Below, piece after piece: positions 15,068 to 64,000 of a stretch of DNA of 64,000 bases. The stretch is from an uncultured Desulfobacterales bacterium (GTDB lineage: Bacteria; Desulfobacterota; Desulfobacteria; Desulfobacterales; B30-G6). How positions within the stretch are numbered: position 1 is the stretch's first letter; each line of letters opens with the position of its first letter. The notes below the pieces were generated by a model that saw nothing but the letters and a program-made list of their open reading frames with translations, did not search any database and was not told the DNA's origin. The stretch spans positions 78,162 to 142,161 of the forward strand of contig CAZWEO010000001.1 in NCBI GenBank assembly GCA_964633115.1, given 5' to 3'. The position numbers and the translations under genes are program-made.

Positions 15068-15342
15068 CTTGTTTCGCTTGGCTATTCCAGCTATATGTAT
15101 ATAATAGTTTTATATTTATACACAATATGTTGTATTGGGTATTGATAAATTGTTCATAATTATCTATTTATGAACAATATTGAAACAGGTGTTAAAAACA
15201 GCCTTGTTTTAGACAGCCTATCAAGCCGTTATTGTCAAAGGATATTAACTAAAATAATAATAATATTAATTAATTAAGAACTTATTATATTTATCAACAA
15301 GCCTTATTATTACTTATTCTTATATTAAAGTAGGAAATACTT
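15068..15342. other. Candidate oriC / dnaN upstream region (AT-rich, DnaA-box-like motifs)
   Basis: 275 bp non-coding. DnaA-box-like 9-mers compared with TTATCCACA: TTATACACA at 15116..15124, TTATCAACA at 15291..15299, TTATGAACA at 15168..15176 with its inverted copy at 15151..15159, and TTATCAATA on the minus strand at 15140..15148. A very AT-rich stretch at 15241..15340 is a possible unwinding element. Confidence 0.45.
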
Positions 15343-18893
<3,551 letters not shown>

Positions 18894-18896
18894 AAT

Positions 18897-18932
18897 AAAA
18901 AAGTGATTTCGCTCAGGCAAAATCACTTTTTT
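18897..18932. terminator. Bidirectional intrinsic terminator between gyrB and the KAS III-like gene
   Basis: 13-bp arms AAAAAAGTGATTT / AAATCACTTTTTT around a 10-nt loop, with T-runs on both strands. The second arm overlaps the last codons of the minus-strand gene. Confidence 0.6.
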
Positions 18933-20458
18933 ATTTGGAGGAAGGAACTTCGGGTCATGCCGGCGCCTACAGAATCGTTTAGGATCACTTTGGCGGAACG
19001 CAATTTTGCCAGATTTTGATTAATGCGAAATCCTTGAATATTGTCAGCCGTAAGTTTTTTACCTTCCAAATCATAGGGTAGGCGTTGCATACAAACCACC
19101 GAACAATTGCCACGCGTGTGGATGTTGGTAATCATTTTATTGGACAGATAATCAACCACCTCCTTTTTCAAACCCGGTTGGCCATTGTCCAGGACTTTTT
19201 CGAGCATCATGGGTATCATGGCAAAATTGGCCTGGTGTTCAATCAGTAAATCAAGATCATAAACACTGAGTTGGTTTTGTTGCATCAGGTCGCTGAGATG
19301 TTCTTTGGCTCCACGTGTGGCATACAGGAAAACACCCTTTCCATTCATATCGCCAAAGACATCGTCTTCGGTGGGAACCGCCTGAATATAGTCCGCAAAA
19401 CAGCCATGGGTCCGCGTGTGCGTGTCCACAATCCCGCGGCGGGGTCTTTCAAAAGTAAAACCAGAACCGCGTTGAACGCTAATGTCGGCTGTTAAATCTT
19501 TTCGCAAATAGACACTGACGATGGAACGAAACTTACCGGATTGAATGTAAGCGCGGGCACAGTCATCGACCAGCTGGGGGGATTTGGACAGTGTCATGAT
19601 ATCATAGGCAAAGGCATCAATACGGCGATTATAAAAAGCCAGGTCGCTTTTAAACCCATTGGAGCGGCGGTTACCGAAATTTTCCGGAAACATAAGAACC
19701 GCCAATTCATGCTGCAATCTGGCGGCTGTGGCTGGTACGCGGAAATGCAGTTTGCCAAGCTGATTGTCGATGATAATGCCGTCGATTTTTTGATCACCAT
19801 TTATATCGAAAATCGCTTGCGCAAGCTCGGGGATAAAATCAGAAGCTAAGGAACATTGTGATTTTTCGGTCTGAATCTGGCCGTTGCGAGGGACGCAGGT
19901 GGCAGTTGTTTCGAATCCGGTTGCCAAGGCATCGTCACCAAAAATGATATTCGACGTGTCGAGCGGCACAAAGGCCTTGGCCCGATGAATATTTTCAGCC
20001 CCTACCACGACGGATACGTCACCTTGTTTTAAATAACCGGACAAAGTTAGCATAAATAGCAGTTCCACACTGACATTGTATCCTGGGCAGCCGGCATAAA
20101 GATCCAGAGCAATTGCTTCTGGACATTGGTTCTTAATAATTTTAAATGGATAGCGAACCAGTGGTCCAGGATCATATTTATCGTCGCCCACATTGGTTGC
20201 CCCGATAACTACTTTTATTCTTTTTGGTTCGATCTTTGCTGTGTCCAGCAGGTTTTGAATCGCGATGGTTCCGATGCGAACATCGTCCGGCGCCACCATC
20301 CGCGTGCGGATGCCAATCCGCTCCTCGATGGTCTTTAAATTGACCGGAATCTCTCCTTTGAAGAGCATGCCCTTATTTTCATATATGGTATTATCGGTCA
20401 GGGTACCACCATTCCAGGCGCCATATGCTTTAATTTCGAGAACGGATCCTTGGATCAC
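18923..20458 (-). CDS. KAS III (FabH)-like thiolase-fold condensing enzyme with large internal insertion
   Basis: 511 aa with GTG start. Cys-His-Asn triad context: YAGCPGYN (Cys124), IEHQANFAM (His408), TRGNCSV (Asn451). About 180 extra residues lie between the FGDDA block and the MNGKGVF block. Confidence 0.7.
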   Translation of the reverse strand: MIQGSVLEIKAYGAWNGGTLTDNTIYENKGMLFKGEIPVNLKTIEERIGIRTRMVAPDDVRIGTIAIQNLLDTAKIEPKRIKVVIGATNVGDDKYDPGPLVRYPFKIIKNQCPEAIALDLYAGCPGYNVSVELLFMLTLSGYLKQGDVSVVVGAENIHRAKAFVPLDTSNIIFGDDALATGFETTATCVPRNGQIQTEKSQCSLASDFIPELAQAIFDINGDQKIDGIIIDNQLGKLHFRVPATAARLQHELAVLMFPENFGNRRSNGFKSDLAFYNRRIDAFAYDIMTLSKSPQLVDDCARAYIQSGKFRSIVSVYLRKDLTADISVQRGSGFTFERPRRGIVDTHTRTHGCFADYIQAVPTEDDVFGDMNGKGVFLYATRGAKEHLSDLMQQNQLSVYDLDLLIEHQANFAMIPMMLEKVLDNGQPGLKKEVVDYLSNKMITNIHTRGNCSVVCMQRLPYDLEGKKLTADNIQGFRINQNLAKLRSAKVILNDSVGAGMTRSSFLQIKK

Positions 20459-38552: not shown

Positions 38553-40223
38553 ATGGAGCAAGCTCGTGTATTGATTGCAATCGTGCTTTCATTTGCAGTG
38601 TTTTTTGTGTGGAATTTATTCTTTACGGAGGACTCGCCCCCCAAGGAACCGGCAACTGAACCGGCAATACAGGAGACCAAAAAAGGGACCACAACACCCA
38701 TCGAAACACCGGCGCCGGAAATTAAAACCGCCGAGCCGCCAGTGGTTGTTCAACCCGTCGTGCCCACCGTGACCACGGGTTCGGAGTCACGCGTTCTTCA
38801 GGTGGAATCTCCTTTGTACTCAATTGCCATTAATGAACGCGGTGCAGTCTTTCAAAGCTACGTTCTTAAGCAATATCGTGAAGAAATGGCTGCGGATGCA
38901 CCGTATAAGGAGCTTATAGACTCGTCCGCCAGCCAAGATATGTTGGGTTTGTCATTGGTTGGGAATAGCATTCTTGGGTTAGACCAGGCCGTGTTTGCGG
39001 CCGTGGAGACAGCTGACAAACTAGATGTATTCGAAGACGAAAAGCAGCTTACCTTTCTGTGGGCTTCAGAATCAGGCGTTCAAATCGAAAAAAAATATAC
39101 ATTTCAGCCGGATAGTTATCTGATTCAAATGGCGGTGGCGATCCGCAATGGATCCGGTCAGGCAATTGTCGACAAGCTCGTGCTGGGCATGAAAAATGAC
39201 GCGGCGTCAGAAAAAGCCGGATATTCATTCAGTGGCCCCAGTGCAATGATTGACAATAAACTGGAGCAAGTTAAAGAAAAGAAAATAAAGGATCAAAGCG
39301 AATATCCTGGTAATATCAAGTGGTTAGCCATTGTGGATCGCTACTTTATGAAAGGGATAATGCCCAAAGAAGAAACCCAGGGCGCCATGAAACTTTCCTT
39401 GGACGACAAGGGTGTGTTGGGTTGTCGCTTTATCGGTCCCGACCGGACTATCCAGCCAGGCACACAAGCTACATACGAATATGAAATCTTTTTCGGGCCA
39501 AAAAGCATGGCGGTCTTGAAGGAAGCTGGCCATGATCTTAACAGGGCGCTTGATTTCGGAATGTTTGATTTTATCGCCAAGCCACTCCTGTGGTTCATGA
39601 ACTTTATCTACAGCCTGATTCCCAACTATGGCATTGCCATTATTATGTTGACCATATTGACCAAAATTGTCTTATGGCCACTGGGATCCAAGAGCTATAA
39701 GTCCATGAGCGAAATGAAGCGCTTGCAGCCATTAATGGGCGAGATCCGTGAAAAATACAAAAACGACAAAAAGCAGATGAATCAGGAGATTATGTCCCTG
39801 TACCGAACCTACAAGATCAATCCCATGGGCGGGTGCCTTCCCATGGTTATGCAGATTCCGGTCTTTTTTGCTTTGTATCGCATGCTATACCAGGCCATCG
39901 AGCTTCGGCATGCGCCTTTCTTTTTATGGATAAACGATTTGTCGGCTCCGGACCGCTTATTTAATTTTGGTTTCTCGATACCTTTTATGCAGCCGCCTTA
40001 TGGGTTCCCCGTGTTGACGGTCATTATGGGTGCAACCATGCTGCTGCAGCAAAAAATGTCACCCCCCCCCGGAGACCCGACCCAGGCGAAAATGATGATG
40101 CTCATGCCAATCGTTTTCACCTTTATTTTTATCAATTTTTCGTCGGGGCTTGTACTCTACTGGCTAATCAACAATGTTCTATCCATTGGTCAGCAATTTT
40201 ACATTCAGAAAAAGTATGCATAA
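38553..40223 (+). CDS. yidC: Membrane protein insertase YidC
   Basis: 556 aa with an N-terminal anchor, a large periplasmic domain, and the conserved C-terminal 5-TM core (GCLPMVMQIPVFFALY, SGLVLYW). Confidence 0.95.
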   Translation: MEQARVLIAIVLSFAVFFVWNLFFTEDSPPKEPATEPAIQETKKGTTTPIETPAPEIKTAEPPVVVQPVVPTVTTGSESRVLQVESPLYSIAINERGAVFQSYVLKQYREEMAADAPYKELIDSSASQDMLGLSLVGNSILGLDQAVFAAVETADKLDVFEDEKQLTFLWASESGVQIEKKYTFQPDSYLIQMAVAIRNGSGQAIVDKLVLGMKNDAASEKAGYSFSGPSAMIDNKLEQVKEKKIKDQSEYPGNIKWLAIVDRYFMKGIMPKEETQGAMKLSLDDKGVLGCRFIGPDRTIQPGTQATYEYEIFFGPKSMAVLKEAGHDLNRALDFGMFDFIAKPLLWFMNFIYSLIPNYGIAIIMLTILTKIVLWPLGSKSYKSMSEMKRLQPLMGEIREKYKNDKKQMNQEIMSLYRTYKINPMGGCLPMVMQIPVFFALYRMLYQAIELRHAPFFLWINDLSAPDRLFNFGFSIPFMQPPYGFPVLTVIMGATMLLQQKMSPPPGDPTQAKMMMLMPIVFTFIFINFSSGLVLYWLINNVLSIGQQFYIQKKYA

Positions 40224-41022: not shown

Positions 41023-42426
41023 ATGACTAAAACAACCATAGCGGCCATCTCCACGCCTTATGGCTCCGGCGGCATCGGTATTATTCGCGTATCAGGGGAT
41101 CAATCTATTCAAATTCTGGAAGCGTTATTTGAAAAAAGCGGTTGCAGAGATGGTGACACCGTCCCTGTAATCGATCGTCTGGAATCACACCGCTTTTACC
41201 ATGGATATATTCGGGACTCACAAACAGGGCAACGCGTTGATGAAGTTCTGGTGGTGGCCATGCTGGGACCGCGATCCTATACGCGTGAGGATGTTGTTGA
41301 AATCCATTCTCATTCCGGTCCGGTTGTGTTGGGCAAAATCTTTGAACAGGTGATTAATCGAGGGGCCGCCATTGCCGAACCGGGTGAATTTACCAAGCGG
41401 GCCTTTCTCAACGGTCGTATCGATTTAACCCAGGCCGAAGCGGTAATCGATATTATCCAAGCCAAATCCGAGACAGCCCTACAGATAGCCAATCATCAAT
41501 TAGCAGGCGGGTTAACCCAAAAAATAGATCCAATTAGAGAGGCTCTGCAATCGATTCGGGTGTTAGTTGAAGCAGCCATTGATTTTCCTGAAGACATCGA
41601 AGAAAGTGTAAAAACCCAATCGATTCAGGACGAGCTGGAACTTGATGTCATCGCCAAGATTGATCAGATTTTGGGCGACTATAAGGCGGATCATTATTTC
41701 CGGGATGGCGTTAAAATGGCCGTTATTGGGCGGCCGAATGTAGGCAAGTCCAGCTTAATGAATCGCTTGATTGATCGCGATCGGGCGATTGTAACCGCCA
41801 TACCGGGAACCACGCGCGATGTTATTGAAGAAGTCATTCATATTAAGGGGCTTCCCATTGTGATCATGGATACCGCTGGATTGCATACCGCCAGCGGTGA
41901 GGTTGAAAAGATCGGTATGCAAAAGACACAGCAATCTATTCAGGATGCGGATATCGTCCTTTTTATGATTGATGCCAGTATGGATATTTCGTCAGAAGAT
42001 AATGAGATATATGTGCAAATTGAAAATAAAAAACATTTAATCGTTTACAATAAGATCGATTTGATCCTGGCTGATCAAGAGCAGATCATTTCAACCATGT
42101 GGAAGGATCATGCCGTTGTACGTATTTCGGCACTTAATGGAACCAATCTGGACCAGCTCAAAAGGAAACTATGGTCCCTGGTGGTAGGCAAAACAGGACT
42201 CGACCGAGAAATTGGGGTCGTACCCAACATGCGGCACAAAAAGCAACTGGAAACCTGTTTGGCCGCTGCTAAAAGAGCCAGACGCGCGATTAAAGAAGAG
42301 TTGCCAGCAGAATTGATTGCAACCGACATCATGGACGCCATCAAAACTTTGGGGGCTATTCTTGGCGAACAGTATCCATCGGATTTGCTGGATCAGATTT
42401 TCAGTCGATTCTGCATTGGGAAATAA
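41023..42426 (+). CDS. mnmE: tRNA modification GTPase MnmE
   Basis: 467 aa. TIAAISTP N-terminus, G domain [12 protein letters not shown] / DTAG, C-terminal FCIGK. Confidence 0.95.
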
Positions 42427-53619: not shown

Positions 53620-54990
53620 TCACTTTGCGTTATAACTGGCAAGCTTACGCCTGAGCGTGTTAAGTCCAATACCTAAAATGCGGGCGGCTTGGGATTTGTT
53701 ATGATTTAGCTGATGATATACTTGCATGATGTGGGTTTTTTCAACCTCTGCCAGGGGAGCCAAAGGAGCTGCACCATCAGGAAGTTTTACCTTCTTGGCG
53801 GGCTTTGGGTTACCTAACGACCTGGGTAGGAACCGAGGGGCAATGGGCAAACCCTGGGCAAGGTTTACCGCGGACTCAACCATGGCCTTGAGCTCCCGAA
53901 TATTACCGGGGAAATCATAATTCATTAAAAGTTGCAGTGCTTCAGGTGTAATGAAATTTCCTTTTTCAAGATCGTAATGAGTGGCTAAAAAGGCTCTAAC
54001 CAAAAGGGGGATATCGATCTTGCGATCCCTTAAGGGCGGTAGATGCAGCCAGCCACCCCGGATACGGTAGTAGAGATCCTTCCGAAAACGGCCACGTCGC
54101 ATCCGTTTTTCTAAATCGGTGTTGGTGGCGGCCACAAAACGGACATCCGCAATTTGATCGGTGCTGGTACCCAGTTTGATATAACGGCCGTCCTGAATAA
54201 ATCGAAGCAGTTTTCCTTGCACCTCCATGGGCAACAACCCGATTTCATCCAGAAAAAGGGTGCCCTGGTCGGTATATTCCAAATAGCCCGCTCGGTTGCT
54301 CTCTGCACCGGTATAGGCCCCCTTGGCATGTCCAAAAAACTCAGCATCGAACAGATTACTATTGAGGGACGCCATGTTGATGGCCGTAAACGGATGCTTT
54401 TTTCTAGGGCTGGCCTGATGGATGGCGCGTGCCAATAGCTCTTTTCCGGTGCCACTTTCACCGGTAATGAGTATGGGAACATTGCTGGCAGCATGCAATT
54501 CGGCTTCTTTGAGAACCCGCAGCACACGATTGGATGTGGTGTTGAAGGCTTTAAAGGCGGCCTTGTTTTTTAATCGCGGGGCGGTCTGTTGCTTGGCAAT
54601 ATCTCGAATGTCCAGTAGCCGTTTGTGTTCCAAAGCGCGATGAACCGATAAGGCTAAATCCTGCCTAGAAACCGGCTTGAGCAGATAATCATAAGCACCG
54701 AGTTGTAAACAGGTCACTGCTGTGCGGGCTTCATTGACCGCTGTAATGATGATGCATTCAGTTAATGGGCTATGGTTTTTAATGATATCGAGCAATTCCA
54801 AACCGGTCATGCCCGGCATGGTCATGTCCAGCAAGGCCAGATCAAACTGTTTGCCTGACTCAATTCGTTCGGCCGCCTTTAAGGGATCATCTTCCAGAGT
54901 GATTCGCCGGAACTTATTTTTGCGTAAATGCTGTTTTTGGATATCCAGAAAATCACGGTCATCATCCACAATCAAAATTCGAGGCTCCAT
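53620..54990 (-). CDS. Sigma-54-dependent response regulator (receiver + AAA+ + Fis-type HTH; NtrC/AtoC family)
   Basis: The ORF track extends to 55146. The ATG at 54990 has an AGGAGA RBS and gives MEPRILIVDDD. Walker A GESGTGKE, GAYTGA (a GAFTGA variant), C-terminal HTH SQAARILGIGLNTLRRKL. Confidence 0.9.
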   Translation of the reverse strand: MEPRILIVDDDRDFLDIQKQHLRKNKFRRITLEDDPLKAAERIESGKQFDLALLDMTMPGMTGLELLDIIKNHSPLTECIIITAVNEARTAVTCLQLGAYDYLLKPVSRQDLALSVHRALEHKRLLDIRDIAKQQTAPRLKNKAAFKAFNTTSNRVLRVLKEAELHAASNVPILITGESGTGKELLARAIHQASPRKKHPFTAINMASLNSNLFDAEFFGHAKGAYTGAESNRAGYLEYTDQGTLFLDEIGLLPMEVQGKLLRFIQDGRYIKLGTSTDQIADVRFVAATNTDLEKRMRRGRFRKDLYYRIRGGWLHLPPLRDRKIDIPLLVRAFLATHYDLEKGNFITPEALQLLMNYDFPGNIRELKAMVESAVNLAQGLPIAPRFLPRSLGNPKPAKKVKLPDGAAPLAPLAEVEKTHIMQVYHQLNHNKSQAARILGIGLNTLRRKLASYNAK

Positions 54991-55116: not shown

Positions 55117-55205
55117 GTGCCAAATTGGCCTATGCCAATTTGGCACATATCATCTTGCTTGCTGAAAACACAACCAAAAACCTGCTCCATATGCCAAAAT
55201 GGCAT
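55117..55205. promoter_or_regulatory. Three TGCCA-N3-TGGCA palindromes (candidate enhancer/UAS sites)
   Basis: gTGCCAAATTGGCc at 55117..55130, TGCCAATTTGGCA at 55133..55145, aTGCCAAAATGGCAt at 55191..55205. They lie in the divergent intergenic region, roughly 110-200 bp upstream of the -24/-12 promoter. Confidence 0.5.
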
Positions 55206-55244
55206 AATGTAATCTGCCCAAGAAATTTTGGGCAGATTACATTA
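55205..55244. repeat. 40-bp palindrome with perfect 16-bp arms
   Basis: TAATGTAATCTGCCCA (55205..55220) / TGGGCAGATTACATTA (55229..55244), with a mostly self-complementary 8-nt centre agaaattt. Confidence 0.6.
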
Positions 55245-55315: not shown

Positions 55316-55331
55316 TGGCACACTCATTGCG
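55316..55331 (+). promoter_or_regulatory. Sigma-54 (-24/-12) promoter of the metF-like/hdr cluster
   Basis: TGGCACactcaTTGCg. The GG and GC are separated by exactly 10 nt as in the consensus TGGCACG-N4-TTGCW. It lies 114 nt upstream of the ATG at 55445, with an AT-rich bendable stretch between it and the palindromes. Confidence 0.7.
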
Positions 55332-55444
55332 AAGATCTTTGTGTTAGCGGTCAGGAAATTACTTTTCCTGCCTCTGCTTTCATTTCGCCCCAAAAAATAA
55401 ATAGTACAATAAAATCGAAAAGATGTCTTAGTGGGAGGTAGACC

Positions 55445-56314
55445 ATGGGTCTGAAACAGAAACTAGATGCAGGGGAATTCGTTATACTGGCAGAAATGGA
55501 ACCCCCCAAAGGAGCCGATGCGTCGGCCATGCTTGCCAATGCGAAAAAGGTTAAAGGAAGTGTGGACGCCTTTGTTGTTCCCGAGATGAGTAACGCCGTC
55601 ATGCGTATGAGTTCCCTCGGTGGTGGTATGATTTTGCAGGCCAGCGGTATGGATGTGGTTTTTCAGGTTAACTGTCGGGATCGCAACCGCATTGCCATAC
55701 AAGCAGATCTCTTGGCCGCAAATGGTTGCGGGATTTTTAATATCATGGCTGTTAAAGGAGAGGATCCCAGCTTTGGCGACCATCATCAGGCACGTGCTGT
55801 GTACGACATCGATTTAGCAGAGTTGTTGGCGGCGATCCAAGGGCTCCAACAAGGGCGGGATATGGCCGGGATCGAACTTAAAGGTGCACCGTCATTTTTA
55901 GTGGGAACAACCGTGGATGCCGGTGCCCGGGATAAATCTCCGGAACTGATTCGGGAAGAGATGGATCAGAAAAAGGATGCCGGCGCGCAGTTTTTCATTA
56001 CACCCCCTTTGTTTGATATGGCCACCATCGAACCGTTTATCAAAGGTGTTGATCCCACCGAAACCAGAATCATACCCACAGTCCTGCTACTGAAATCTTT
56101 GGGCATGGCTCGCTACATTTCGCGTAATGTCAGCAATACATTCATCCCGGATGCATTAATTCAGCAGCTCCAGAAAGCGCCGGACAAGGTTAATGCGTGT
56201 ATCAAAATCGCTTCGGAAATGGTCAAAACATTAAAAAAGGAAGGTTTTTGCGGTGTGCAGCTTTCCACAATCGGATGGGAGGATAAGCTCCCGGCAATAT
56301 TGAAAGGGGTTTGA
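55445..56314 (+). CDS. Methylenetetrahydrofolate reductase-like protein (MetF paralogue 1, no adjacent MetV)
   Basis: 289 aa. MTHFR-fold blocks (FQVNCRDRNRIAIQADLLAA, FFITPPLFD). GGGAGG RBS. Confidence 0.75.
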   Translation: MGLKQKLDAGEFVILAEMEPPKGADASAMLANAKKVKGSVDAFVVPEMSNAVMRMSSLGGGMILQASGMDVVFQVNCRDRNRIAIQADLLAANGCGIFNIMAVKGEDPSFGDHHQARAVYDIDLAELLAAIQGLQQGRDMAGIELKGAPSFLVGTTVDAGARDKSPELIREEMDQKKDAGAQFFITPPLFDMATIEPFIKGVDPTETRIIPTVLLLKSLGMARYISRNVSNTFIPDALIQQLQKAPDKVNACIKIASEMVKTLKKEGFCGVQLSTIGWEDKLPAILKGV

Positions 56315-56324
56315 GGAATAAAAA

Positions 56325-59300
56325 ATGACAAAGCAATCAGGTGAGCACAAATCGGATTTGGTCGGTTCAGTCATGGTCGTCGGCGGCGGCATCACAGGCA
56401 TGCAGTCGGCCCTGGATCTTGCCAATTCAGGCTATTATGTTTATATGCTCGAGTCCTCTTCTGCCATTGGTGGACTCATGTCTCAGTTGGACAAGACATT
56501 TCCCACCAACGACTGTGCCATGTGAATTATTTCACCCAAACTGGTCGAGGTCGGCCGGCATCTCAACATCGAGCTTCTTACGAACACCGAATTGATTTCC
56601 TTAAACGGCGAACCAGGTAATTTTAGCGCCAACATTCGTCAGAAACCTCGCTTTATTGATTTAGATAAATGTACCAGTTGCGGGGAATGTGAAAAGGTCT
56701 GCCCCGTATCCCTGCCCAGTGAATACAATGAAGGCCTTGCAGACAAAAAAGCGGCATTCAAGCAATATCCCCAGGCAATTCCGGGGGCGTTTGCAATCGA
56801 TAAAAAAGGTTCGGCGCCCTGTAAGGTAAGTTGCCCGGCCCACGTGAGTGTTCAGGGTTTCATAGCCTTGATCCAGCAGGGGAAATACGAAGAAGCTCTA
56901 AAACTTTTCAAACAGGATCACCCCCTTCCGGGCGTCTGTGGACGGGTGTGCCATCATCCTTGTGAAGGTGCCTGCACACGCAATCAGGTAGATGATACTT
57001 TGTCGATCCAGTATCTGCACCGATTTCTGGCAGACAAGGATCTTGAAAGCGGCAAACCGTTTTTGCCCGAAAAGAAAGCCGAACGATCTGAAAAGATTGC
57101 TATCATCGGCGCCGGACCGGCCGGATTAACCTGCGCCTATTATCTGGCCATTGAGGGATATCAGGTAACCGTTTTTGAGAAGCTTCCGGTCCTGGGCGGC
57201 ATGCTGACAGTCGGGATTCCTTCCTATCGCCTGCCGCGGGATATTATTGAAAGTGAAATTCAGACCATCAAGGATTTGGGCGTCAAGTTTAAAACCGGCG
57301 TAGAGTTGGGCAAGGATATTACGGTGGCCCAACTGCGGGAAGAGGGTTTTAAGGCCTTTTTCATGGGCATTGGCTCGCATGAATGCAAGGTTTTGGGTAT
57401 CGAAGGAGAGGATTTGGAAGGGGTGTACCCGGGCATCGATTTTCTGCGAGAAGTCAACCTGGGCAATCGTGTTCAACTGGGTGAACGTGTGGCCGTGGTC
57501 GGAGGCGGCAACGTCGCCATGGATTCGGTCCGTACGGCCCTACGAACAGGCTCTAAAAAACCATTTGTAATTTACCGCCGCAGCTATGAAGAAATGCCGG
57601 CCAACGATGTGGAAATCGAAGAGTGTGGCGAAGAAGGCGTCGATATCATGACTCTGACCAACCCAATACGTGTGATCGGTGAAAACGGGAAGGTTCAGGC
57701 CATTGAATGTATCAAAATGGAGCTGGGGGAGCCGGATGCCAGTGGTAGACGGCGGCCCGTCCCCATTGAGGGCTCCGAATTTACCATGGAGGTGGATGCA
57801 GTCATTCCGGCAATCGGTCAGGAGAGCGACTGGGCCTGTCTGACAGACGAATGCGCCTGCACCTTGAGCGACTGGGGCACCATGCATGTGGACCCGGTAA
57901 CCCTCCAGTCAAGCGATCCAGATATTTTCTCGGGTGGCGATGCTGTGACCGGTCCGGCGACAGTTGTGGAGGCCGTGGAAGCCGGTAAGCAAGCCGCCAT
58001 CTCCATCGACCGTTTTGTGGAAGGTCAAGATTTGGCTGAGGGACGTGAAAAGCAATGGGTGACGGTGGATGACATTCCCTTGGATGATGCCGTTAATCAA
58101 CCCAAAGAAAAGATGCCGACCCTGGACGCCCAGGAGCGAATTTCAAATTTTAACGAAGTCCAGCTGGGTTTTGACGAGGGCATCTCCCAAAAAGAATCCG
58201 ATCGCTGTCTATCCTGCGGCATTTGCTCGGAATGTTACCAATGTGTGGAGGCCTGTCTGGCTGGTGCTGTGGAACATGAACAGGTGGTTGAAGAAAGACA
58301 GATTCCAGTGGGGTCGGTGGTACTGTCCACGGGCGCACGGCCCTATGATCCTGGCCATTTAGAACGGTATTATCACTATGGCACCAATCCCAATGTGATG
58401 ACGAGTCTGGAATTCGAGCGTATGCTGAGTGCATCCGGACCCACCATGGGACACCTTATTAAGCCATCGGATGAAACCGAACCCAAGCGGATCGCTTGGT
58501 TGCAGTGCATCGGTTCCCGCGATAACAACCAATGTGGCAATGGATACTGTTCTTCGGTTTGCTGTATGTATGCAATCAAGGATGCCATGGTGGCCAAGGA
58601 ACATTCTAAGGCAGACCTGGATTGTACTATTTTTAATATGGACATCCGAACCTTTGGGAAGGATTTTGAAAAGTACTATGTCCGGGCCAAAGACCAGGAA
58701 GGCGTGAATTTCGTCAAAGCACGCGTGCACACTATTGACGAAGTAGGCAAGGATAAGGATTTACGCATCCGCTACGCCGATGAGGCTGGTGAGCTGCAGG
58801 AAGAAATTTTCGACATGGTCGTGCTATCTGTGGGTTTGCAAGTATCGGAGCAGACCATCGATCTGGCTAAACGCCTAGACGTTGAGATGGATCCATATAA
58901 TTTTGCTGTAACCCAACCGTTTTCCCCAGTAGAGACCTCACGTCCGGGGATTTATGTCAGCGGATCTTTTCAGGAAGCCAAAGATATTCCCAGCTCGGTC
59001 TCGGAGGCCTCGGCTGCGGCTTGTGCCGCCGGCGCACGCCTGGCCGCAGTCCGCAATACCTTGACCCGAACGGTGGAACTGCCCCAAGAGCTCGATGTGA
59101 GTGAGGAAGAACCCCGTATCGGCGTCTTTGTTTGTAATTGCGGTATTAACATCGCCGGGGTTGTGGATGTGGCCGCTGTGGAGGAATATGCTAAGACCCT
59201 GCCCTATGTCACCTATGTTACCCAGAACCTGTTTACCTGCTCCCAGGATTCCCAGGACCAGATGAAGGATATTATCAAGGAACAGAATCTTAACCGGATT

Positions 59301-60779
59301 GTGGTGGCTGCCTGTACCCCCAAGACGCATGAAGCCATCTTTATGGATACGATCCGCGAATGCGGCCTCAACAAGTACCTATTTGAAATGGCCAATATCC
59401 GTAACCAAGGCTCTTGGGTCCATGCCAAAGAGGCTGATGAGGCAACTGAAAAATCAAAGGATTTGGTCCGCATGGCCGTGGCCAGATCAGCCACACTCAA
59501 TCCCTTGGGCGAAAAAACCATACCTGTCAATCAAAAGGCCCTGGTGGTGGGTGGTGGTATTGCCGGCATGAATGCGGCCCTGGGTCTTGCTGACCAGGGA
59601 TATGAGGTCTTTTTAGTGGAGAAGGAGAATCAACTGGGCGGTATGGCCAACAACCTAAAGGCCACCATTGAAGGTGCCCAAATTCAGCCCTATCTGACAG
59701 AGCTCCGGGAGCGAATCGGTTCGAATGAAAAGATTCAGGTGCTGACCCAATCGCTCATCGTAGGCTTCTCTGGCTTCAAAGGCAATTTCACAACCGAAGT
59801 ATTAGTGGGGCCTGGCATGTACGAGCGTAAGATCGAACACGGCGTCGTCATCCTGGCCACCGGCGCCAATGAATACCAGCCCAAAGAGTATTTGTACGGT
59901 GAAGACAAACGCGTGATGACCCAGGTGGAGCTGACCCAACATATGGAGAACCTGAAGTCGGGCTCATTGAATCAGGTGGTCATGATCCAATGCGTAGGCT
60001 CACGCAATGAAGAAAATCCAAATTGCTCGCGGATATGCTGCCAGAATGCAATCAAGAATGCTCTCCATATCCGCGAAGAACACCCGGATGCCAATATTTA
60101 TGTGTTGTATCGCGATATCCGGACCTACGGATTGTTGGAGGAGTACTATAAAGAAGCTCGAAAACAAGGCATTTTGTTCTTCCGCTATACACCGGATAAT
60201 CCACCCCAGGTGGAATCTTCAAAAGATGGGGTGAATGTCACCTTTCATGATCATGTGCTCAATCGACCCTTGCAGGTCAGCGCCGATGTACTGGCCCTGA
60301 GTGCCGGCATGGTGCCAGAGGATACGGCCGAGCTTGCTTCAATTGTAAAGCTGGCCAGAACCCCCGAGGGCTTTTTCATGGAAGCCCATGTCAAACTGCG
60401 ACCCGTGGATATGGCCACCGAGGGTATTTTTGTATGTGGCACTGCTCACAGCCCCAAACTGATTTCTGAAACCATATCTCAAGCCAATGCGGCGGCATCG
60501 CGGGCCATCACTTTCCTATCCCAATCGGAACTGACCCTGTCTGCCATTACGGCCGAGGTCAAACAGGACATGTGTGCCTCCTGCCTTGTTTGTGTGCGTT
60601 CCTGTCCCTATGATGTTCCCAAGATCAATGCCGATGGCGTCAGCGAAATTGATGAGGCCCTATGCCATGGATGCGGTGTATGTGCGGCCGAATGCCCGGC
60701 CAAGGCGATTGAGCTTAACTGGTATGAAGACGATCAATTGATTTGCAAGATTGAATCCTTGCTGGAGGGAGTCCTATGA
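56325..60779 (+). CDS. Giant HdrA-like flavoprotein (HdrL-type: HdrA module with inserted GltD/NfnB-like NAD(P)H module + second complete HdrA module), selenocysteine at UGA 56523..56525
   Basis: ORF-track pieces 56325..56525 and 56592..60779 share one frame, and the only stop between them is that TGA. Context [29 protein letters not shown] matches the HdrA Cys/Sec site. GltD-like [16 protein letters not shown]...[14 protein letters not shown]. Second module [29 protein letters not shown]-terminal 2x[4Fe-4S] CxxCxxCxxxCP. Confidence 0.85.
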
Positions 60780-61207
60780 GTCAAACATTTGAGCCGATTA
60801 TTATCGCCTTTTGTTGTAATTTCTGAGGGTATACGGCCGCGGACCTGGCAGGTTCCATGCGACTGACGTATCCGACCAATATTAAAATTATCCGGGTACC
60901 CTGCACCGGTAAGGTGGATATCCTGCATATCCTCAAATCCTTTGAAAAAGGAGCCGACGGTGTTTATGCGGTGGGGTGTATGGAAGGCGATTGCCACTAC
61001 ACCGGTGGTAATTTTAGAGCCCGTAAACGGGTCGAACAGGCCAAAAAGATTTTGGATACGGTAGGTGTGGGCGGAGAACGGGTGGAAATGTTCAATATGG
61101 CCTCCAGCGAAGGCCCCATGTTTGCAGAGGTGGCTGTGGATATGGTGAAAAGGATCAAGGCGCTGGGGCCCAATCCCATCAAGCTACCCAAGAAGGATGC
61201 AGCCTAA
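60776..61207 (+). CDS. mvhD: MvhD-like [2Fe-2S] protein, selenocysteine at UGA 60824..60826
   Basis: The ATG at 60776 overlaps the upstream stop (ATGA), and GGAGGGAG is the RBS. Translation [32 protein letters not shown]... continues in frame into ORF-track 60857..61207. The motif corresponds to the FxCNWC-xY-xxADLAG block of MvhD/VhuD. Confidence 0.85.
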
Positions 61208-61313
61208 TCGCGCTGGAAGCGCTCAGTTCGCTGCTGTGACACCATGAAATATAACTGGTTACGATGTTAACCAATAACCGATTTGAAATGACCCAATCAA
61301 AGAGGATGAAATT

Positions 61314-61982
61314 ATGATTGTTGCTGACAAGAAGCCAATTGAAGAGATTATTGAGGACATCAAGGATCACCAAAAGATACTGGTTCTGGGTTGCAATGAG
61401 TGTGTCACGGTGTGTGAGGCCGGCGGAAAAAAGGAGGTTGGCATCCTGGCATCGGCACTACGCATGTATTTCCTAAATCAGGGCAAGGAAAAGAAGATCG
61501 ATGAACGCACGCTCGAGCGCCAATGCGATCATGAATATCTAGAGGAGATCCGCAATGATATCGATCAGTACGATGCCGTTGTGTCGATTGCTTGTGGCGT
61601 CGGTGTCCAGTTTACAGCCGAAAAGTATCTGGCCATGCCCGTTTATCCCGGTGTCAATACCTGCTTTATGGGTGCCACCGAGGAACGTGGTCTCTGGACC
61701 GAACGATGTCAGGGGTGTGGGCAATGTATCTTATCCCGTACGGGTGGGATCTGCCCGGTTTCACGGTGTGCCAAACGGGTCATGAATGGGCCCTGCGGTG
61801 GATCCACCAAGGGAATGTGCGAAATCAACAAAGAGTTGCTGTGTGCTTGGCAACTGATTGTCGAACGTCTCAAAGCCCTGGATAGATTTGCTGAGTATGA
61901 GGAGCTGAGTCCGATTAAAGATTGGTCCACCGACCGGGCAGGAGGACCCCGAAAAGTTGTGAGGGAGGATGTGCAGTCATGA
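61314..61982 (+). CDS. metV: MetV (MTHFR-associated Cys-rich Fe-S/zinc-ribbon subunit)
   Basis: 222 aa and Cys-rich (LGCNECVTVCEAGG; CQGCGQC; CPVSRCAKRVMNGPCGG). ATGA overlap with the downstream metF. Confidence 0.8.
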   Translation: MIVADKKPIEEIIEDIKDHQKILVLGCNECVTVCEAGGKKEVGILASALRMYFLNQGKEKKIDERTLERQCDHEYLEEIRNDIDQYDAVVSIACGVGVQFTAEKYLAMPVYPGVNTCFMGATEERGLWTERCQGCGQCILSRTGGICPVSRCAKRVMNGPCGGSTKGMCEINKELLCAWQLIVERLKALDRFAEYEELSPIKDWSTDRAGGPRKVVREDVQS

Positions 61983-62908
61983 AAACAAATACGCCGAGTC
62001 GCTTGGAAAAGGTATTAGCTGCCGGTCAGATGGCCGTAACCTCAGAGTGTGGTCCGCCAAGAGGTAGTGATCCGGATGCCATTACCAAGAAAGCAGAGCT
62101 GATCAAGGACCATGTAGATGCCATCAATATCACCGATAATCAGACGTCAGTTACACGTATGTGCAGCCTGGCGGCCTGTATCCGCATCAAATTGATGGGA
62201 CTGGATCCGGTGTTACAGATGGTAACGCGCGATCGGAATCGGATTGCCTTGCAGAGTGATATTTTAGGCGCCGCATCCTATGATATCGCCAATATTCTGT
62301 GTCTCTCCGGCGATCATCAAAGTTTTGGTGACTGCGCCCAGGGCCAAAATGTGCATGATCTCGATTCCATGCAACTGGTTCAGACCGCTCGCCATATGCG
62401 CGATGAAGGTAAATTCTTGGGGGGTGACGATATCAAGCGGCCGCCTCAGATGTTTGTGGGTGCCGCAGCCAACCCTTTTGCCGATCCATTTGAGATACGC
62501 GTGCCAAGATTGGCCAAAAAAATCAAGGCCGGGGCCGAATTTATCCAAACTCAATGTATCTATAACCTGGATAAATTTGAAGAATGGATGAAGCTAACCC
62601 GGGATCGGGGTTTGCATGAACAGGTCTATATCCTAGCCGGCATGACACCTATGAAGTCGGCCGGTATGGCCAAATATATGAAGAATCGCGTACCCGGCAT
62701 GGATGTGCCCGATGAGTTGGTTAAACGCTTGTCGGATACGCCCAAGGAAAAGCAGGCCGAAGAGGGTATCAAGATATGTATTGAAGACATTCAACGATTG
62801 AAAGAAGTGGAAGGCGTGAGTGGTTTTCATGTCATGGCCATCGAGTGGGAAGAAATGGTACCTGAAATCGTGGAAGCGGCGGGTTTGTATCCTCGGCCCA
62901 CCGTGTGA
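61979..62908 (+). CDS. metF: Methylenetetrahydrofolate reductase (MetF paralogue 2, MetV-coupled)
   Basis: The ORF track starts at 61922. The ATG at 61979 overlaps the metV stop. 309 aa with blocks QMVTRDRNRIALQSDILGA and EFIQTQCIYN. Confidence 0.85.
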   Translation: MKTNTPSRLEKVLAAGQMAVTSECGPPRGSDPDAITKKAELIKDHVDAINITDNQTSVTRMCSLAACIRIKLMGLDPVLQMVTRDRNRIALQSDILGAASYDIANILCLSGDHQSFGDCAQGQNVHDLDSMQLVQTARHMRDEGKFLGGDDIKRPPQMFVGAAANPFADPFEIRVPRLAKKIKAGAEFIQTQCIYNLDKFEEWMKLTRDRGLHEQVYILAGMTPMKSAGMAKYMKNRVPGMDVPDELVKRLSDTPKEKQAEEGIKICIEDIQRLKEVEGVSGFHVMAIEWEEMVPEIVEAAGLYPRPTV

Positions 62909-62959
62909 ATTATTTAACCACTTAATAATCATCATTTTGGAACAGATAGGAGGTTTACC

Positions 62960-63349
62960 ATGACGGACAAAAAAAGAATTCTCGTAGTAGATGACGAGCC
63001 TGACTTCTGCTCCATCGTTCAGGGGCAGCTTGAAAAAGAAGGATTTGAAGTTGACTTGGCTTATAATGGGGTGGAGGGCATGGAGAAAGTTCAGGCCAAC
63101 CCCCCCGATGCGATTGTGCTCGATGTGATGATGCCCGAAAAAGACGGCTATGAAATGTGTAAGGAACTCAAATCAGATAGCAATTTATGTGAAATTCCAG
63201 TGCTTCTTTTGACCGCCGTGGCATCGCACGTAACATCGACCCGATATTCTCACGCCGATGGTATGAGCACCGAGGCTGATGATTATATCGCCAAACCCGC
63301 TTCGGCCGAGGAAATTTCACAAAGCATCCGTTTGATGCTGGGCATGTAG
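62960..63349 (+). CDS. Stand-alone response-regulator receiver (CheY-like)
   Basis: 129 aa. ILVVDDEPD, phospho-acceptor context VLDVMMPEKDG, and a Lys in the YIAKP block. Confidence 0.85.
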   Translation: MTDKKRILVVDDEPDFCSIVQGQLEKEGFEVDLAYNGVEGMEKVQANPPDAIVLDVMMPEKDGYEMCKELKSDSNLCEIPVLLLTAVASHVTSTRYSHADGMSTEADDYIAKPASAEEISQSIRLMLGM

Positions 63350-63424
63350 TCCATTTGGATTCAATCTATGCCTGTCAGATCAGGATGAGTATTTTCAAGT
63401 GGCTGTAATTGCGAGGAGTCAACC

Positions 63425-64000
63425 ATGTCATTGCCGGTTTTAAAGCTAGATAAGAAAAAAAGTGTGTTCAAAGAAGAGGTCATGAAAATCTTGCCCGAGG
63501 GGGGTAATCTAAATCTTTGTCTGACATGTGGGCTGTGCTCTTCGGGATGCCCGGCAACCGGGTTAGAGGACATGGACCCCCGAAAATTTTTAAGAATGGC
63601 TTCACTGGGGCTGGATGAGGAGGTGCTGAGTTCAAAGTGGGCCTGGATGTGTACCATGTGTCAACGCTGTATCATCGCCTGCCCCATGAAGATCGATATC
63701 CCGGCTCTGGTTTTCAATGTCCGTAATCGTTGGCCGGTAGAAGATCGACCCAAAGGTATTCATAGCTCATGTGAAATGGCCTTTAAAAATGATACCTGCA
63801 GCGCCATGGGTGCCACGGTAGAGGATTTTCGATTTGTCGTCGAGGATGTGCTGGAGGAGTATCAGGAGGAACAGCCTGAATTTAAGGATATGCAGGCGCC
63901 CATCGACAAACATGGGTCCGAGTTTTTCTTGAACCAGAACTCGCGCGAACCAGTGACGGAACCGGATGAAATGGTACCGTTATGGAAAATTTTGCACACG
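63425..64000 (+). CDS. HdrC/HdrD-like iron-sulfur protein (5' part; runs off the window)
   Basis: Not in the ORF track because there is no stop within the window. The ATG at 63425 is open for 192 codons. Two ferredoxin motifs, CLTCGLCSSGCP and CTMCQRCIIACP. The antisense ORF 63361..63657 is judged spurious. Confidence 0.75.
   Translation, partial: MSLPVLKLDKKKSVFKEEVMKILPEGGNLNLCLTCGLCSSGCPATGLEDMDPRKFLRMASLGLDEEVLSSKWAWMCTMCQRCIIACPMKIDIPALVFNVRNRWPVEDRPKGIHSSCEMAFKNDTCSAMGATVEDFRFVVEDVLEEYQEEQPEFKDMQAPIDKHGSEFFLNQNSREPVTEPDEMVPLWKILHT

Follow-up and report, generated by a model that had tools for sequence, protein, structure and literature searches.

A predicted Desulfobacterales version of the Moorella-type methylene-THF reductase/heterodisulfide-reductase operon with an additional MetF

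We analyzed a 64,000-nucleotide stretch of DNA (hereafter the window) from an uncultured Desulfobacterales bacterium and identified a seven-gene operon that appears to be the Desulfobacterales version of the Moorella-type methylene-THF reductase/heterodisulfide-reductase complex, under putative sigma-54 control. An earlier note on this DNA had recognized a kinship with the MetFV-HdrABC-MvhD reductase of Moorella, and both the subunit set and the domain order of HdrA bear this out. As read from its genes, the operon adds to the known type an extra MetV-less MetF (MetF1), a fused selenocysteine HdrD and an embedded receiver, whereas its NAD(P)H module, judged by published descriptions, is a feature already known in the family.

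Gene order, conservation and predicted control

The order metF1, hdrA, mvhD, metV, metF2, receiver and HdrC/D-like gene was confirmed, with all seven genes on the + strand at the positions that the earlier note had given them. Stop and start codons overlap (ATGA, read in the sequence) between hdrA and mvhD and again between metV and metF2, an arrangement that fits co-translation and argues against independent transcription of the genes. Two PAS histidine kinases are encoded downstream of the operon, and the 64-kb window contains no other Wood-Ljungdahl genes.

The mvhD gene (60776..61207, +; 143 aa; PF02662, E 4e-48) has VhuD as its best NCBIfam match (E 9e-53) and a Sec codon at position 17 (TGA, 60824-60826). 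The metV gene (61314..61982, +; 222 aa; PF12225, E 1e-35), with an NGPCGG motif in its translation, encodes the predicted Fe-S/Zn partner of MetF2. MetF2 itself (61979..62908, +; 309 aa; PF02219, E 3e-35) is a catalytic subunit of canonical MetFV type, which keeps the equivalents of Glu28, Asp120 and Gln183 and has a dN/dS of 0.02. The single-domain receiver inside the operon (62960..63349, +; 129 aa; PF00072, E 3e-25), in which D11, D12, D55, T85 and K112 can be read, also has a dN/dS of 0.02, indicating strong purifying selection.

The arrangement is no rarity; a synteny comparison revealed that the order is conserved across Desulfobacterales: 42 of 48 informative species-level genomes keep it through metF2, and it extends through the receiver in 38 of 45 informative loci and through hdrD in 29 of 41. 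A MetF1 relative is encoded in at least 327 species-level genomes. This operon type is thus widespread among uncultured sulfate reducers, although we found no biochemical characterization of it in the searchable literature.

The proposed sigma-54/EBP control is backed by an activator, a promoter and a palindrome that are conserved across dozens of genomes. A divergent sigma-54 activator (53620..54990, -) combines a receiver (PF00072), an AAA+ sigma-54 interaction domain (PF00158, E 2e-60) and a Fis-type HTH (PF02954), and almost every related locus has its orthologue (56-89% identity) immediately upstream of metF1. Likely binding sites of the activator are three TGCCAA-N3-TGGCA-type inverted repeats, read from the sequence at 55119..55204. 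In 44 of 75 loci, the palindrome TGCCAAnnnTGGCA precedes the -24 element by about 125 nt; its density is 1.42 per kb upstream versus 0.07 per kb in downstream coding sequence. A candidate -24/-12 promoter, TGGCACactcaTTGC (TGGCAC-N5-TTGC), was read at 55316..55330 (+); in 62 of 75 loci, the 500 nt preceding metF1 contain a relaxed form of this motif, which is about 28-fold denser there than in downstream sequence, so that upstream enrichment of the two elements is 20- to 28-fold. Together, the receiver, the activator and the two PAS kinases would make expression, and possibly also activity, depend on a sensed signal.

The HdrA giant and the HdrD-like selenoprotein

The second gene encodes, in one reading frame, an HdrL-type HdrA giant of 1,484 aa (56325..60779, +) with a Sec codon at position 67 (TGA, 56523-56525). 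Four of its stretches have counterparts in solved HdrA structures (E 1e-175), and another matches NfnB. This last stretch, an NfnB/GltD-like NAD(P)H-FAD module (residues 164-574; 56814..58046, +; PF14691, PF07992), is inserted in the first HdrA half and reaches E 2e-97 to NfnB 5jca_L and E 7e-97 to 4ylf_B. The second half (residues 924-1484; 59094..60776, +), delimited by alignment to HdrA, consists of an N-terminal cluster domain, a thioredoxin-reductase-like domain without an inserted ferredoxin domain, and a C-terminal ferredoxin domain; its residues 924-1106 align to HdrA 1-188 and residues 1305-1480 to HdrA 467-653. The two halves also align to one another, and E/K pairs are found at 698/752 and 1202/1244. 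By published description rather than by alignment, the giant matches the HdrA of M. thermoacetica, a 1,487-aa protein with an extra thioredoxin-reductase-like domain broken up by a GltD domain to which FAD and NAD(P)H bind, a second half beginning at residue 922, and two E/K pairs (696/750 and 1204/1246) (PMC9430772).

The operon contains three conserved Sec codons, each followed by a hairpin: TGA is kept in 72 of 72 hdrA orthologues, in 53 of 54 for mvhD (TGT in the other) and in 35 of 35 for hdrD. After the hdrA UGA, a putative SECIS hairpin (56526..56563, +) forms CUGGUCGAGGUCGGCCGG in the minimum-energy fold. Nucleotides downstream of this TGA are invariant among the 72 orthologues, and the 23-nt core AAACTGGTCGAGGTCGGCCGGCA is near-invariant among the loci listed (a single A-to-G change, in locus L029), while flanking third codon positions vary.

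The last gene (63425..64000, +) runs off the window; its 5' part encodes a Fer4_8 domain with two CX2CX2CX3CP motifs and matches the HdrC model TIGR03290 (E 8e-16). An identical metagenome contig, L001, completes the gene (437 aa, L001:10466-11779), adding an in-frame TGA (Sec codon 243) followed by a hairpin, as well as a C-terminal CCG domain, the only one detectable, which makes the product HdrD-like. Its best NCBIfam matches, all below the cut-offs, are HmcF (1e-50), TmcB (9e-49) and DsrK (6e-35). The earlier observation that separate hdrB and hdrC genes are lacking held. One HdrD-type fusion follows the receiver gene; by its domains, a single HmcF/TmcB/DsrK-like selenoprotein appears to replace HdrB and HdrC here. 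Four otherwise complete loci (L030, L057, L082 and L085) lack hdrD, which suggests that HdrD may not be an obligate subunit.

MetF1 and the proposed mechanism

MetF1 (55445..56314, +; 289 aa; PF02219, E 5e-28) is an MTHFR-fold protein without a MetV partner and is 32% identical to MetF2 over its full length. Its AlphaFold model has a pLDDT of 87, and the best PDB folds are all MTHFR (TM 0.77-0.79). With this confidently predicted fold and a dN/dS of 0.07, MetF1 is not a decayed copy or degenerate duplicate, even though the folate-contacting Gln183 equivalent is missing. This position is Pro in MetF1 and in 99% of its orthologues, and is conserved nowhere in the clade. The Glu28 equivalent is kept, and GED stands in place of GD, which shifts the acidic residue by one position. 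Given the lost Gln183 equivalent and the shifted acidic residue, MetF1 may not act on folate at all. The earlier proposal that it is a true divergent paralogue was supported; it falls in a separate MetV-less clade of about 25 of 115 representatives, in which [TS]Q is kept in only 2 and GD in only 4. Both paralogues share the MetFV-lineage residues RDRNR, with Gln and Trp at the His88 and Arg279 sites, respectively. Clade members usually adjoin Hdr genes: metF1 always lies directly upstream of hdrA, and five of seven more distant members adjoin HdrA-, HdrC- or HdrB-like genes, while one (on a 1.7-kb contig) is next to a receiver of 69% identity and another stands by itself.

The operon's product is probably a Desulfobacterales form of type IV ("6S", Moorella-type) methylene-THF reductase, in which a MetFV module is wired to an Hdr/MvhD electron-transfer core working as follows. 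The steps on NAD(P)H, flavin and the two electron paths are inferred by analogy with the enzymes of Moorella and Sporomusa and with solved structures of archaeal HdrABC. NAD(P)H would be oxidized, or NAD(P)+ reduced, at the NfnB/GltD-like insertion of HdrA, and the first HdrA flavin, with its E/K signature and adjacent Sec, would be where electrons meet. One path would lead through the MvhD [2Fe-2S] cluster and the MetV [4Fe-4S] clusters to methylene-THF reduction or methyl-THF oxidation at the MetF2 flavin. The other would lead to the HdrD-like selenoprotein; its closest named relatives belong to the Hmc, Tmc and Dsr complexes as cytoplasmic subunits, which points toward a thiol/disulfide partner, for example DsrC. 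In sulfate reducers that fully oxidize acetyl-CoA, the complex would mostly run in reverse, with electrons from methyl-THF (about -200 mV) splitting between an uphill route to NAD(P)+ and a downhill route to the disulfide side. MetF1 would be functional, a flavin-type subunit with the MTHFR fold from a clade whose members work with Hdr proteins in the absence of MetV, and would most likely attach directly to HdrA or HdrD, providing a second terminal site.

What this second site does can be read in two ways. It is possible, and we suggest it tentatively, that MetF1 is another methylene-THF reductase site, the fused two-half HdrA serving two catalytic MetF subunits and no new substrate. Its high-confidence predicted fold, the retained Glu28 equivalent and an acidic residue in the G-x-D motif, the residues shared with MetF2 and the fixed position before hdrA are consistent with this, but the Pro at the Gln183 site is not; moreover, MetV, a strong stimulator of MetF activity in known enzymes (PMC8760232), has no second copy, and clade members also occur with HdrC/B alone, on short contigs where no MetV or MetF2 was seen. 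A more doubtful reading makes MetF1 the entry or exit for a second substrate of type-IV-like complexes, as an MTHFR-fold flavoprotein with a remodeled pocket in which HdrC/B-type clusters replace MetV. The distinct clade with its rarely kept motifs, its recurrence beside HdrC, HdrB or HdrA genes and the strong purifying selection on MetF1 would suit such a role, and the second acceptor of the Moorella enzyme is not yet identified (PMC8760232). However, the sequence names no candidate substrate, MetF1 persists in loci without HdrD, and Moorella, per the cited descriptions, poses the same second-acceptor question without a MetF1.

Two further readings concern the Hdr part. As proposed for Sporomusa ovata, it could link MetFV to the membrane and quinone pool without bifurcation; HdrD's docking site would then be a membrane cytochrome b or a DsrM-like protein whose gene lies elsewhere. 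In S. ovata, the HdrCBA-MvhD-MetVF complex is membrane-attached and works in an H2-to-methylene-THF chain (PMC9430772), and HmcF, TmcB and DsrK, the closest named relatives of HdrD, are the cytoplasmic parts of membrane complexes; yet no membrane subunit gene lies in or beside the operon in any locus, the E/K signature tied to bifurcating flavins is kept in both HdrA halves, and the NAD(P)H module is present, making this reading unlikely. Least probable by far is the earlier idea that the operon encodes a self-contained NAD(P)H-linked bifurcating unit of a new kind, which HdrA's acquisition of a pyridine-nucleotide module would separate from the Moorella type. The NfnB/GltD-like module is truly present, and for Desulfobacterium autotrophicum the giant was formerly treated as a class of its own under the name HdrL (PMC2702500). 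Nevertheless, Moorella HdrA is described with the same GltD insertion, near-same length, second-half start and E/K pairs (PMC9430772), and HdrA is the experimentally assigned NADH site of the Moorella complex (PMC8760232). The module would therefore represent the known NADH site of the family rather than a new unit.

Comparison with known systems

The Moorella thermoacetica complex (Mock et al. 2014) is taken here as summarized in PMC8760232, PMC8515935 and PMC9430772. By these summaries, the window operon shares with the type IV/6S enzyme the overlapping metV-metF pair and the NGPCGG MetV (PMC8515935), MvhD, the placement of all genes in one cluster, and an HdrA of some 1,485 aa that contains a GltD/NfnB insertion, an E/K pair in each of its two thioredoxin-reductase-like halves, a second half without an inserted ferredoxin domain and a C-terminal ferredoxin domain. 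Set against the same summaries, the window operon differs in having one HdrD-type fusion (with a single detectable CCG domain) for HdrB and HdrC, located after the receiver gene and not beside hdrA; in being headed by an extra MetV-less MetF; in the selenoprotein nature of HdrA, MvhD and HdrD; in its predicted sigma-54 activator; and in its host, a sulfate reducer in which the pathway may run oxidatively.

HmcF, TmcB and DsrK (NCBIfam NF045711, NF045724 and NF045796) resemble the HdrD-like protein in having a two-cluster ferredoxin domain at the N terminus and a CCG domain at the C terminus, and are its best-scoring named families, at 121-173 bits, far below cut-offs of 400-750. Unlike them, the window protein has no membrane partner gene nearby and carries Sec before the CCG domain. 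The HdrL-MvhD loci of D. autotrophicum HRM2 (PMC2702500), from the same bacterial order, likewise have a large HdrA/glutamate-synthase fusion followed by mvhD, with Sec in HdrL, MvhD and an HdrD paralogue. However, that paper connects these loci with dsrABC and fdh genes and with the oxidation of NADH to reduce sulfite, and no hdrL locus with metF or metV is described there. The S. ovata complex (PMC9430772) also joins MetVF to MvhD and Hdr-like proteins, with the same layout of the second HdrA half; in contrast to the window, its HdrA (101 kDa) lacks the GltD module, HdrB and HdrC are separate, there is no extra MetF, and the complex is attached to the membrane.

In Seep-SRB1g partners of methane-oxidizing archaea, Desulfobacterota with a Wood-Ljungdahl pathway and predicted bifurcation, metF adjoins HdrABC (PMC10553843). 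The passages of that paper on this gene pair note it from synteny only and do not describe a two-MetF operon, a giant HdrA, a receiver or a Sec-HdrD. Even so, it is probably the same broad MetF1-like/Hdr association.

Gene order, distribution and control of the operon

All seven genes that the earlier note had placed at 55445-64000 on the plus strand are present as described. The operon opens with metF1 (55445-56314; 289 aa; PF02219, E 5e-28), the first of two MetF paralogues, and continues after a gap of 10 nt with the gene for the HdrA giant (56325-60779), a single 1,484-codon frame whose sole interruption is a TGA at 56523-56525. The hdrA stop and the mvhD start overlap (ATGA), and mvhD (60776-61207; PF02662, E 4e-48) has a TGA at 60824-60826. 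Then come metV (61314-61982; PF12225, with an NGPCGG motif), which lies upstream of metF2 and overlaps it by 4 nt (ATGA), metF2 itself (61979-62908; 309 aa; PF02219, E 3e-35), a gene for a 129-aa receiver (62960-63349) and the 5' part of hdrD (from 63425), which encodes two CX2CX2CX3CP motifs and is truncated by the window end. Promoter- and terminator-like matches within the cluster are no commoner than in shuffled sequence and hence uninformative. The receiver keeps all of its phosphorylation residues (D11, D12, D55, T85 and K112). Its T85-K112 segment is longer and conserved (ASHVTSTRYSHADGMSTEADDY). It lies on what is commonly the output face of receivers, and it is likewise preserved in a receiver of 69% identity beside a MetF1-like gene on another contig (L089).

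We searched with a profile of MetF1 orthologues and mapped the window proteins by tblastn onto the best 80 loci (63-92% identity) of relatives in 327 species-level genomes. These 80 loci all come from metagenome-assembled or similar genomes and are nearly all labelled Desulfobacterales or "delta proteobacterium", with Olavius symbionts and Candidatus Desulfatibia among them. Among loci long enough to show it, the order is kept through metF2 in 42 of 48, through the receiver in 38 of 45, through hdrD in 29 of 41 and through an aroE-like gene in 33 of 40. A gene order both widespread and already characterised biochemically had been named beforehand as grounds for refutation; the order is indeed widespread, and no biochemical characterisation of it was found in the open-access literature. 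Exceptions through metF2 include four loci (L028, L037, L049 and L054) with an extra HdrA-like and MvhD pair inserted, and one (L050) in which tblastn found no metV or metF2 match after mvhD. L021 was rejected as a true exception, a run of N (an assembly gap) lying inside its hdrA. Four loci (L030, L057, L082 and L085) pass straight from the receiver to the aroE-like gene without hdrD, and two (L076 and L085) hold a second, divergent cluster, hdrA'-mvhD-hdrD-metV-metF, without MetF1. This second cluster adjoins the main operon (L076:1-7475, L085:1-9571, minus strand).

Control of the operon by sigma-54 and an activator, as proposed earlier, is well supported by sequence conservation across the loci. 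The metF1 start is preceded, at a distance of about 115 nt, by a -24/-12 element (TGGCACactcaTTGC, 55316-55330, plus strand). Three palindromes of the TGCCAA-N3-TGGCA type (55119-55204) lie upstream of this promoter, and a REC-AAA+-HTH activator gene (53620-54990) is divergently oriented. The activator lies directly upstream in related loci (56-89% identity). Of 75 loci, 62 have the -24/-12 motif and 44 the palindrome, which as a rule precedes the -24 element by about 125 nt; the upstream density of both motifs exceeds that in downstream sequence 20- to 28-fold. Both features expected of sigma-54 control are thus found, namely a correctly spaced -24 GG/-12 GC element before the first gene and an activator with putative sites upstream. 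The predicted 5' leader between promoter and metF1 also contains a 7-bp hairpin with a T-rich tail (55352-55370), and an inverted repeat (CTGCCCAAGAAATTTTGGGCAG, 55214-55235) lies between the palindromes and the promoter. Rfam at the gathering threshold gave no riboswitch or other RNA in the whole window, and no Rfam family matches either the hairpin or the repeat.

Elsewhere in the window, the sign of the GC skew flips near 12-16 kb, and G+C falls to 0.40 at 14-16 kb (within about 12000-19000). This change adjoins gyrB (16461-18893) and a 372-aa ORF (15343-16461) that is possibly dnaN; yidC (38553-40223) and mnmE (41023-42426) also lie in the window, which is probably situated at the chromosomal replication origin. 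On the minus strand, a 511-aa ORF (18923-20458) has no Pfam match at E 1e-5, and a UvrD-type helicase (11678-15067) carries an N-terminal extension of about 460 residues without a Pfam match.

The giant HdrA, the HdrD-like protein and selenocysteine

Matches to solved structures define how the HdrA giant is split. Residues 25-160 correspond to HdrA 152-287 (the FAD domain and the start of the inserted ferredoxin domain), 164-574 to NfnB/GltD (E 2e-97 to 5jca_L), 633-853 to HdrA 289-510, 924-1106 to HdrA 1-188 (the N-terminal cluster domain and the start of a second Rossmann fold) and 1305-1480 to HdrA 467-653, which takes in the C-terminal ferredoxin domain. The first half can be aligned with the second, which is devoid of the FPTNDC segment and of the inserted ferredoxin domain, and each E/K pair is identifiable (E698/K752 and E1202/K1244). 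The NAD(P)H module had been taken as a distinguishing feature of this operon, a claim that does not survive comparison with the HdrA of Moorella thermoacetica as described by Kremp, Roth and Müller (PMC9430772). That protein (162.8 kDa, 1,487 aa) has a GltD domain, binding FAD and NAD(P)H, that interrupts its N-terminal extra ferredoxin/thioredoxin-reductase-like domains, a second half (residues 922-1487) without the inserted ferredoxin domain, and E/K pairs at 696/750 and 1204/1246 (PMC9430772). Experiment has assigned the NADH site of the Moorella complex to HdrA (PMC8760232), and the protein class was named HdrL as early as 2009 (PMC2702500). Because the window protein matches this description and HdrA is the Moorella NADH site, the NAD(P)H module, as read from sequence and from the published description of Moth_1194 (the Moorella giant HdrA), is a trait common to the family. 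Recognising it as shared corrects a tempting misreading of such loci.

The truncated last gene could be followed on other contigs. The receiver protein was found on 23 public contigs, one of which, L001 (186 kb), matches the cluster without a difference and extends past the window. There, hdrD is a single 437-codon frame with an in-frame TGA (LNTE-U-GHEFF). Such an extension had been suggested as a check for CCG domains, and one is present at the C-terminus (PF02754, E 2e-13), so that the absence of separate hdrB and hdrC genes stands, with one fused 437-aa HdrD-like protein in their place. Pfam recognises no second CCG domain in the N-terminal CCG-like region of this protein, and none around its Sec even at E 10. 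Its N-terminus matches solved HdrC (E 8e-14), and the best named families over the whole protein are HmcF (1e-50), TmcB (9e-49) and DsrK (6e-35), all far below their cut-offs. Given the HdrC-like N-terminus, the CCG domain, the family matches and the in-frame TGA, the last ORF is predicted to encode an HdrD-type fusion of HdrC and HdrB, as in sulfate reducers, and a selenoprotein.

Downstream of hdrD on L001 lie a shikimate-dehydrogenase-like gene and then, on the other strand, two genes for PAS histidine kinases. The former (L001:11814-12632) begins just past the window end after a 34-nt gap; its position is kept in 33/40 related loci, and it directly follows the receiver where hdrD is missing. 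It scores 185 and 176 bits in NCBIfam against aroE cut-offs of 252 and 200, and it may therefore not be a standard AroE. The kinase genes (L001:12645-15621, minus strand) converge on the operon end, and one kinase carries a receiver domain. In many loci the first kinase gene keeps this place (62-89% identity). The two kinases probably act as sensors for the sigma-54 activator, for the embedded receiver, or for both.

The in-frame TGA codons are conserved among orthologues at the related loci: hdrA has TGA in 72/72, mvhD in 53/54 (the remaining one TGT) and hdrD in 35/35. In the alignment with solved HdrA structures, the HdrA Sec falls on the Cys of FPTNDC-x-x-C. Each TGA is followed by a nearly invariant nucleotide block that spans synonymous sites (for example AAACTGGTCGAGGTCGGCCGGCA after the hdrA UGA), and minimum-energy folding turns these blocks into hairpins. 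As evidence for SECIS hairpins the folding energy is weak by itself, with z-scores of -1.4 (hdrA), +0.45 (mvhD) and -2.25 (hdrD). Both hallmarks of a selenoprotein gene are found, a conserved in-frame UGA at a Cys position of homologues and a downstream hairpin. Selenocysteine in HdrA/HdrL, MvhD and an HdrD was reported earlier for Desulfobacterium autotrophicum (PMC2702500).

The MetF1 lineage

Our most distinctive result concerns MetF1, which is 32% identical to MetF2 over its full length. To compare residues, we aligned 81 MetF1 and 45 MetF2 orthologues with an E. coli MetF sequence that agrees with the known positions E28, T59, Y60, H88, D120, A177, Q183 and F223. The equivalent of the general acid Glu28 is kept in both families, MetF1 E17 being invariant in the 81 orthologues, and both share MetFV-lineage residues (RDRNR, Gln at the His88 site and Trp at the Arg279 site). 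MetF2 retains Asp120 (GD) and Gln183 (TQ). At the Asp120 motif, which lies beside flavin and pterin, MetF1 has G105-E106-D107; G-x-D with an acidic third residue occurs in 16/20 representatives of its clade and may be a one-residue shift of the motif. The equivalent of Gln183, a residue that contacts folate and NADH, is lost, with Pro187 in 99% of MetF1 orthologues.

The alternative named in the earlier note, that MetF1 is a degenerate duplicate, is rejected in view of more than 100 invariant positions in its orthologues, a confident predicted fold and a median dN/dS of 0.07 (MetF2 0.02, receiver 0.02), values that are rough because dS is near saturation. MetF1 is under strong purifying selection. 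Its AlphaFold model (pLDDT 87, pTM 0.87) places it in the MTHFR TIM-barrel fold, with the top 50 PDB matches all MTHFR (TM 0.77-0.79), and the only poorly predicted segment is the loop right after the GED motif. By sequence, MetF1 has no match in the PDB and MetF2 matches only E. coli, Thermus and eukaryotic types (E ~1e-8); we found no MetFV-type structure there for residue mapping.

Scanning 1.84 billion representatives in full with HMMER gave 3,443 relatives. Among 115 full-length representatives placed in a neighbour-joining tree, MetF1 sits in a group of about 25, in which [TS]Q is kept in only 2 and GD in only 4, most members having G-x-D with an acidic third residue; the rest of the tree, including MetF2-like sequences, is almost uniformly GD...TQ. 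Seven more distant members of the group reveal the company these proteins keep. P0242 (52% identical to MetF1) lies in the same operon, P0249 (42%) beside a 1,013-aa HdrA-like gene and P0258 (38%) after hdrA-mvhD-metV-metF. P0260 (37%) is followed by HdrC- and HdrB-like genes, P0261 (37%) by an HdrC-like gene and P0250 (41%) by a receiver 69% identical to that of the window, and P0245 (45%) stands alone. Because of these neighbourhoods, MetF1 is assigned to a lineage of predicted MTHFR-fold proteins that travel with Hdr genes and have no MetV of their own. The earlier view of MetF1 as a divergent paralogue without a MetV partner is supported. The pairing may be the metF/Hdr association mentioned in passing for Seep-SRB1g (PMC10553843).

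Possible mechanism and relation to known systems

Desulfobacterales that fully oxidise acetate play a major part in the turnover of carbon in marine sediments, and the operon bears on how they handle the methyl-THF/methylene-THF step (~-200 mV). The second electron acceptor of the Moorella enzyme has been sought since 2014. The operon, in hundreds of species-level genomes, offers two leads on the acceptor: an HdrD akin to DsrK, TmcB and HmcF, suggestive of DsrC-like thiols, and a conserved second MetF with a remodelled pocket. The analysis itself establishes which subunits are encoded, the order of their domains, their conservation and the regulatory signals. By analogy with the Moorella and Sporomusa enzymes and the archaeal HdrABC-MvhAGD structures, NAD(P)(H) would react at the NfnB-like insertion of HdrA, whose first flavin (with its E/K signature and adjacent Sec) would be the junction between a folate arm of MvhD, MetV and MetF2 and a thiol/disulfide arm formed by HdrD. 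The direction in vivo, DsrC as a partner and the role of MetF1 are speculative; MetF1 might bind folate at a second site, act on some other substrate, or be a flavoprotein without catalytic function. A membrane-linked mode as in S. ovata is possible, but no membrane subunit is encoded nearby.

One reading, which we put forward as an outside chance, is that the complex is a methyl-THF-driven bifurcating enzyme of completely oxidising sulfate reducers. Methyl-THF (~-200 mV) would be oxidised at MetF2/MetV, which would stand where the hydrogenase stands as donor in archaeal Mvh-Hdr. From the HdrA flavin, one electron pair would go uphill to NAD(P)+ via the NfnB-like module and the other downhill to a DsrC-type disulfide at Sec-HdrD. 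MetF1-type proteins would constitute a class of their own among MTHFR-fold reductases, working with Hdr proteins on a different substrate, without MetV. If the methyl-THF-driven reading were true, the second partner of type IV MTHFRs, sought for so long, would have a name, and the coupling of the reverse Wood-Ljungdahl pathway's hardest oxidation step to sulfate respiration would be explained. The family is known and the operon widespread; the MetF1 clade and the DsrK-like Sec-HdrD are testable handles on anaerobic energy metabolism.

Among known systems, the cluster most resembles type IV MTHFR, the Moorella-type MetFV-HdrABC-MvhD enzyme. It shares MetF (PF02219) beside MetV (PF12225, NGPCGG) with metV upstream, an MvhD-like [2Fe-2S] subunit, and an HdrA with a GltD insertion and two thioredoxin-reductase-like domains with E/K pairs, the last compared with Moth_1194 by description. 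Type IV has a separate HdrB, with two CCG domains, and HdrC, whereas the window encodes a fused HdrD-like protein with one Pfam CCG domain. Since every sequence-level criterion except separate HdrB and HdrC fits, we file the system as a predicted type IV variant. The interpretation in the earlier note is upheld in part. The giant HdrA also fits the HdrL class of Desulfobacterium autotrophicum, in which HdrA is joined to an NAD(P)H domain like the glutamate synthase small chain and mvhD follows (PMC2702500). We found no description of a two-MetF/giant-HdrA operon in the open-access literature, and an earlier mention elsewhere is possible. The published MTHFR types comprise MetF alone, MetFV, MetFV-RnfC2, MetFV-HdrABC-MvhD and a NuoEFG-linked type in Desulfobacterales (PMC8515935; PMC8760232); two MetFs, a fused Sec-HdrD and an embedded receiver are each absent from all of these.
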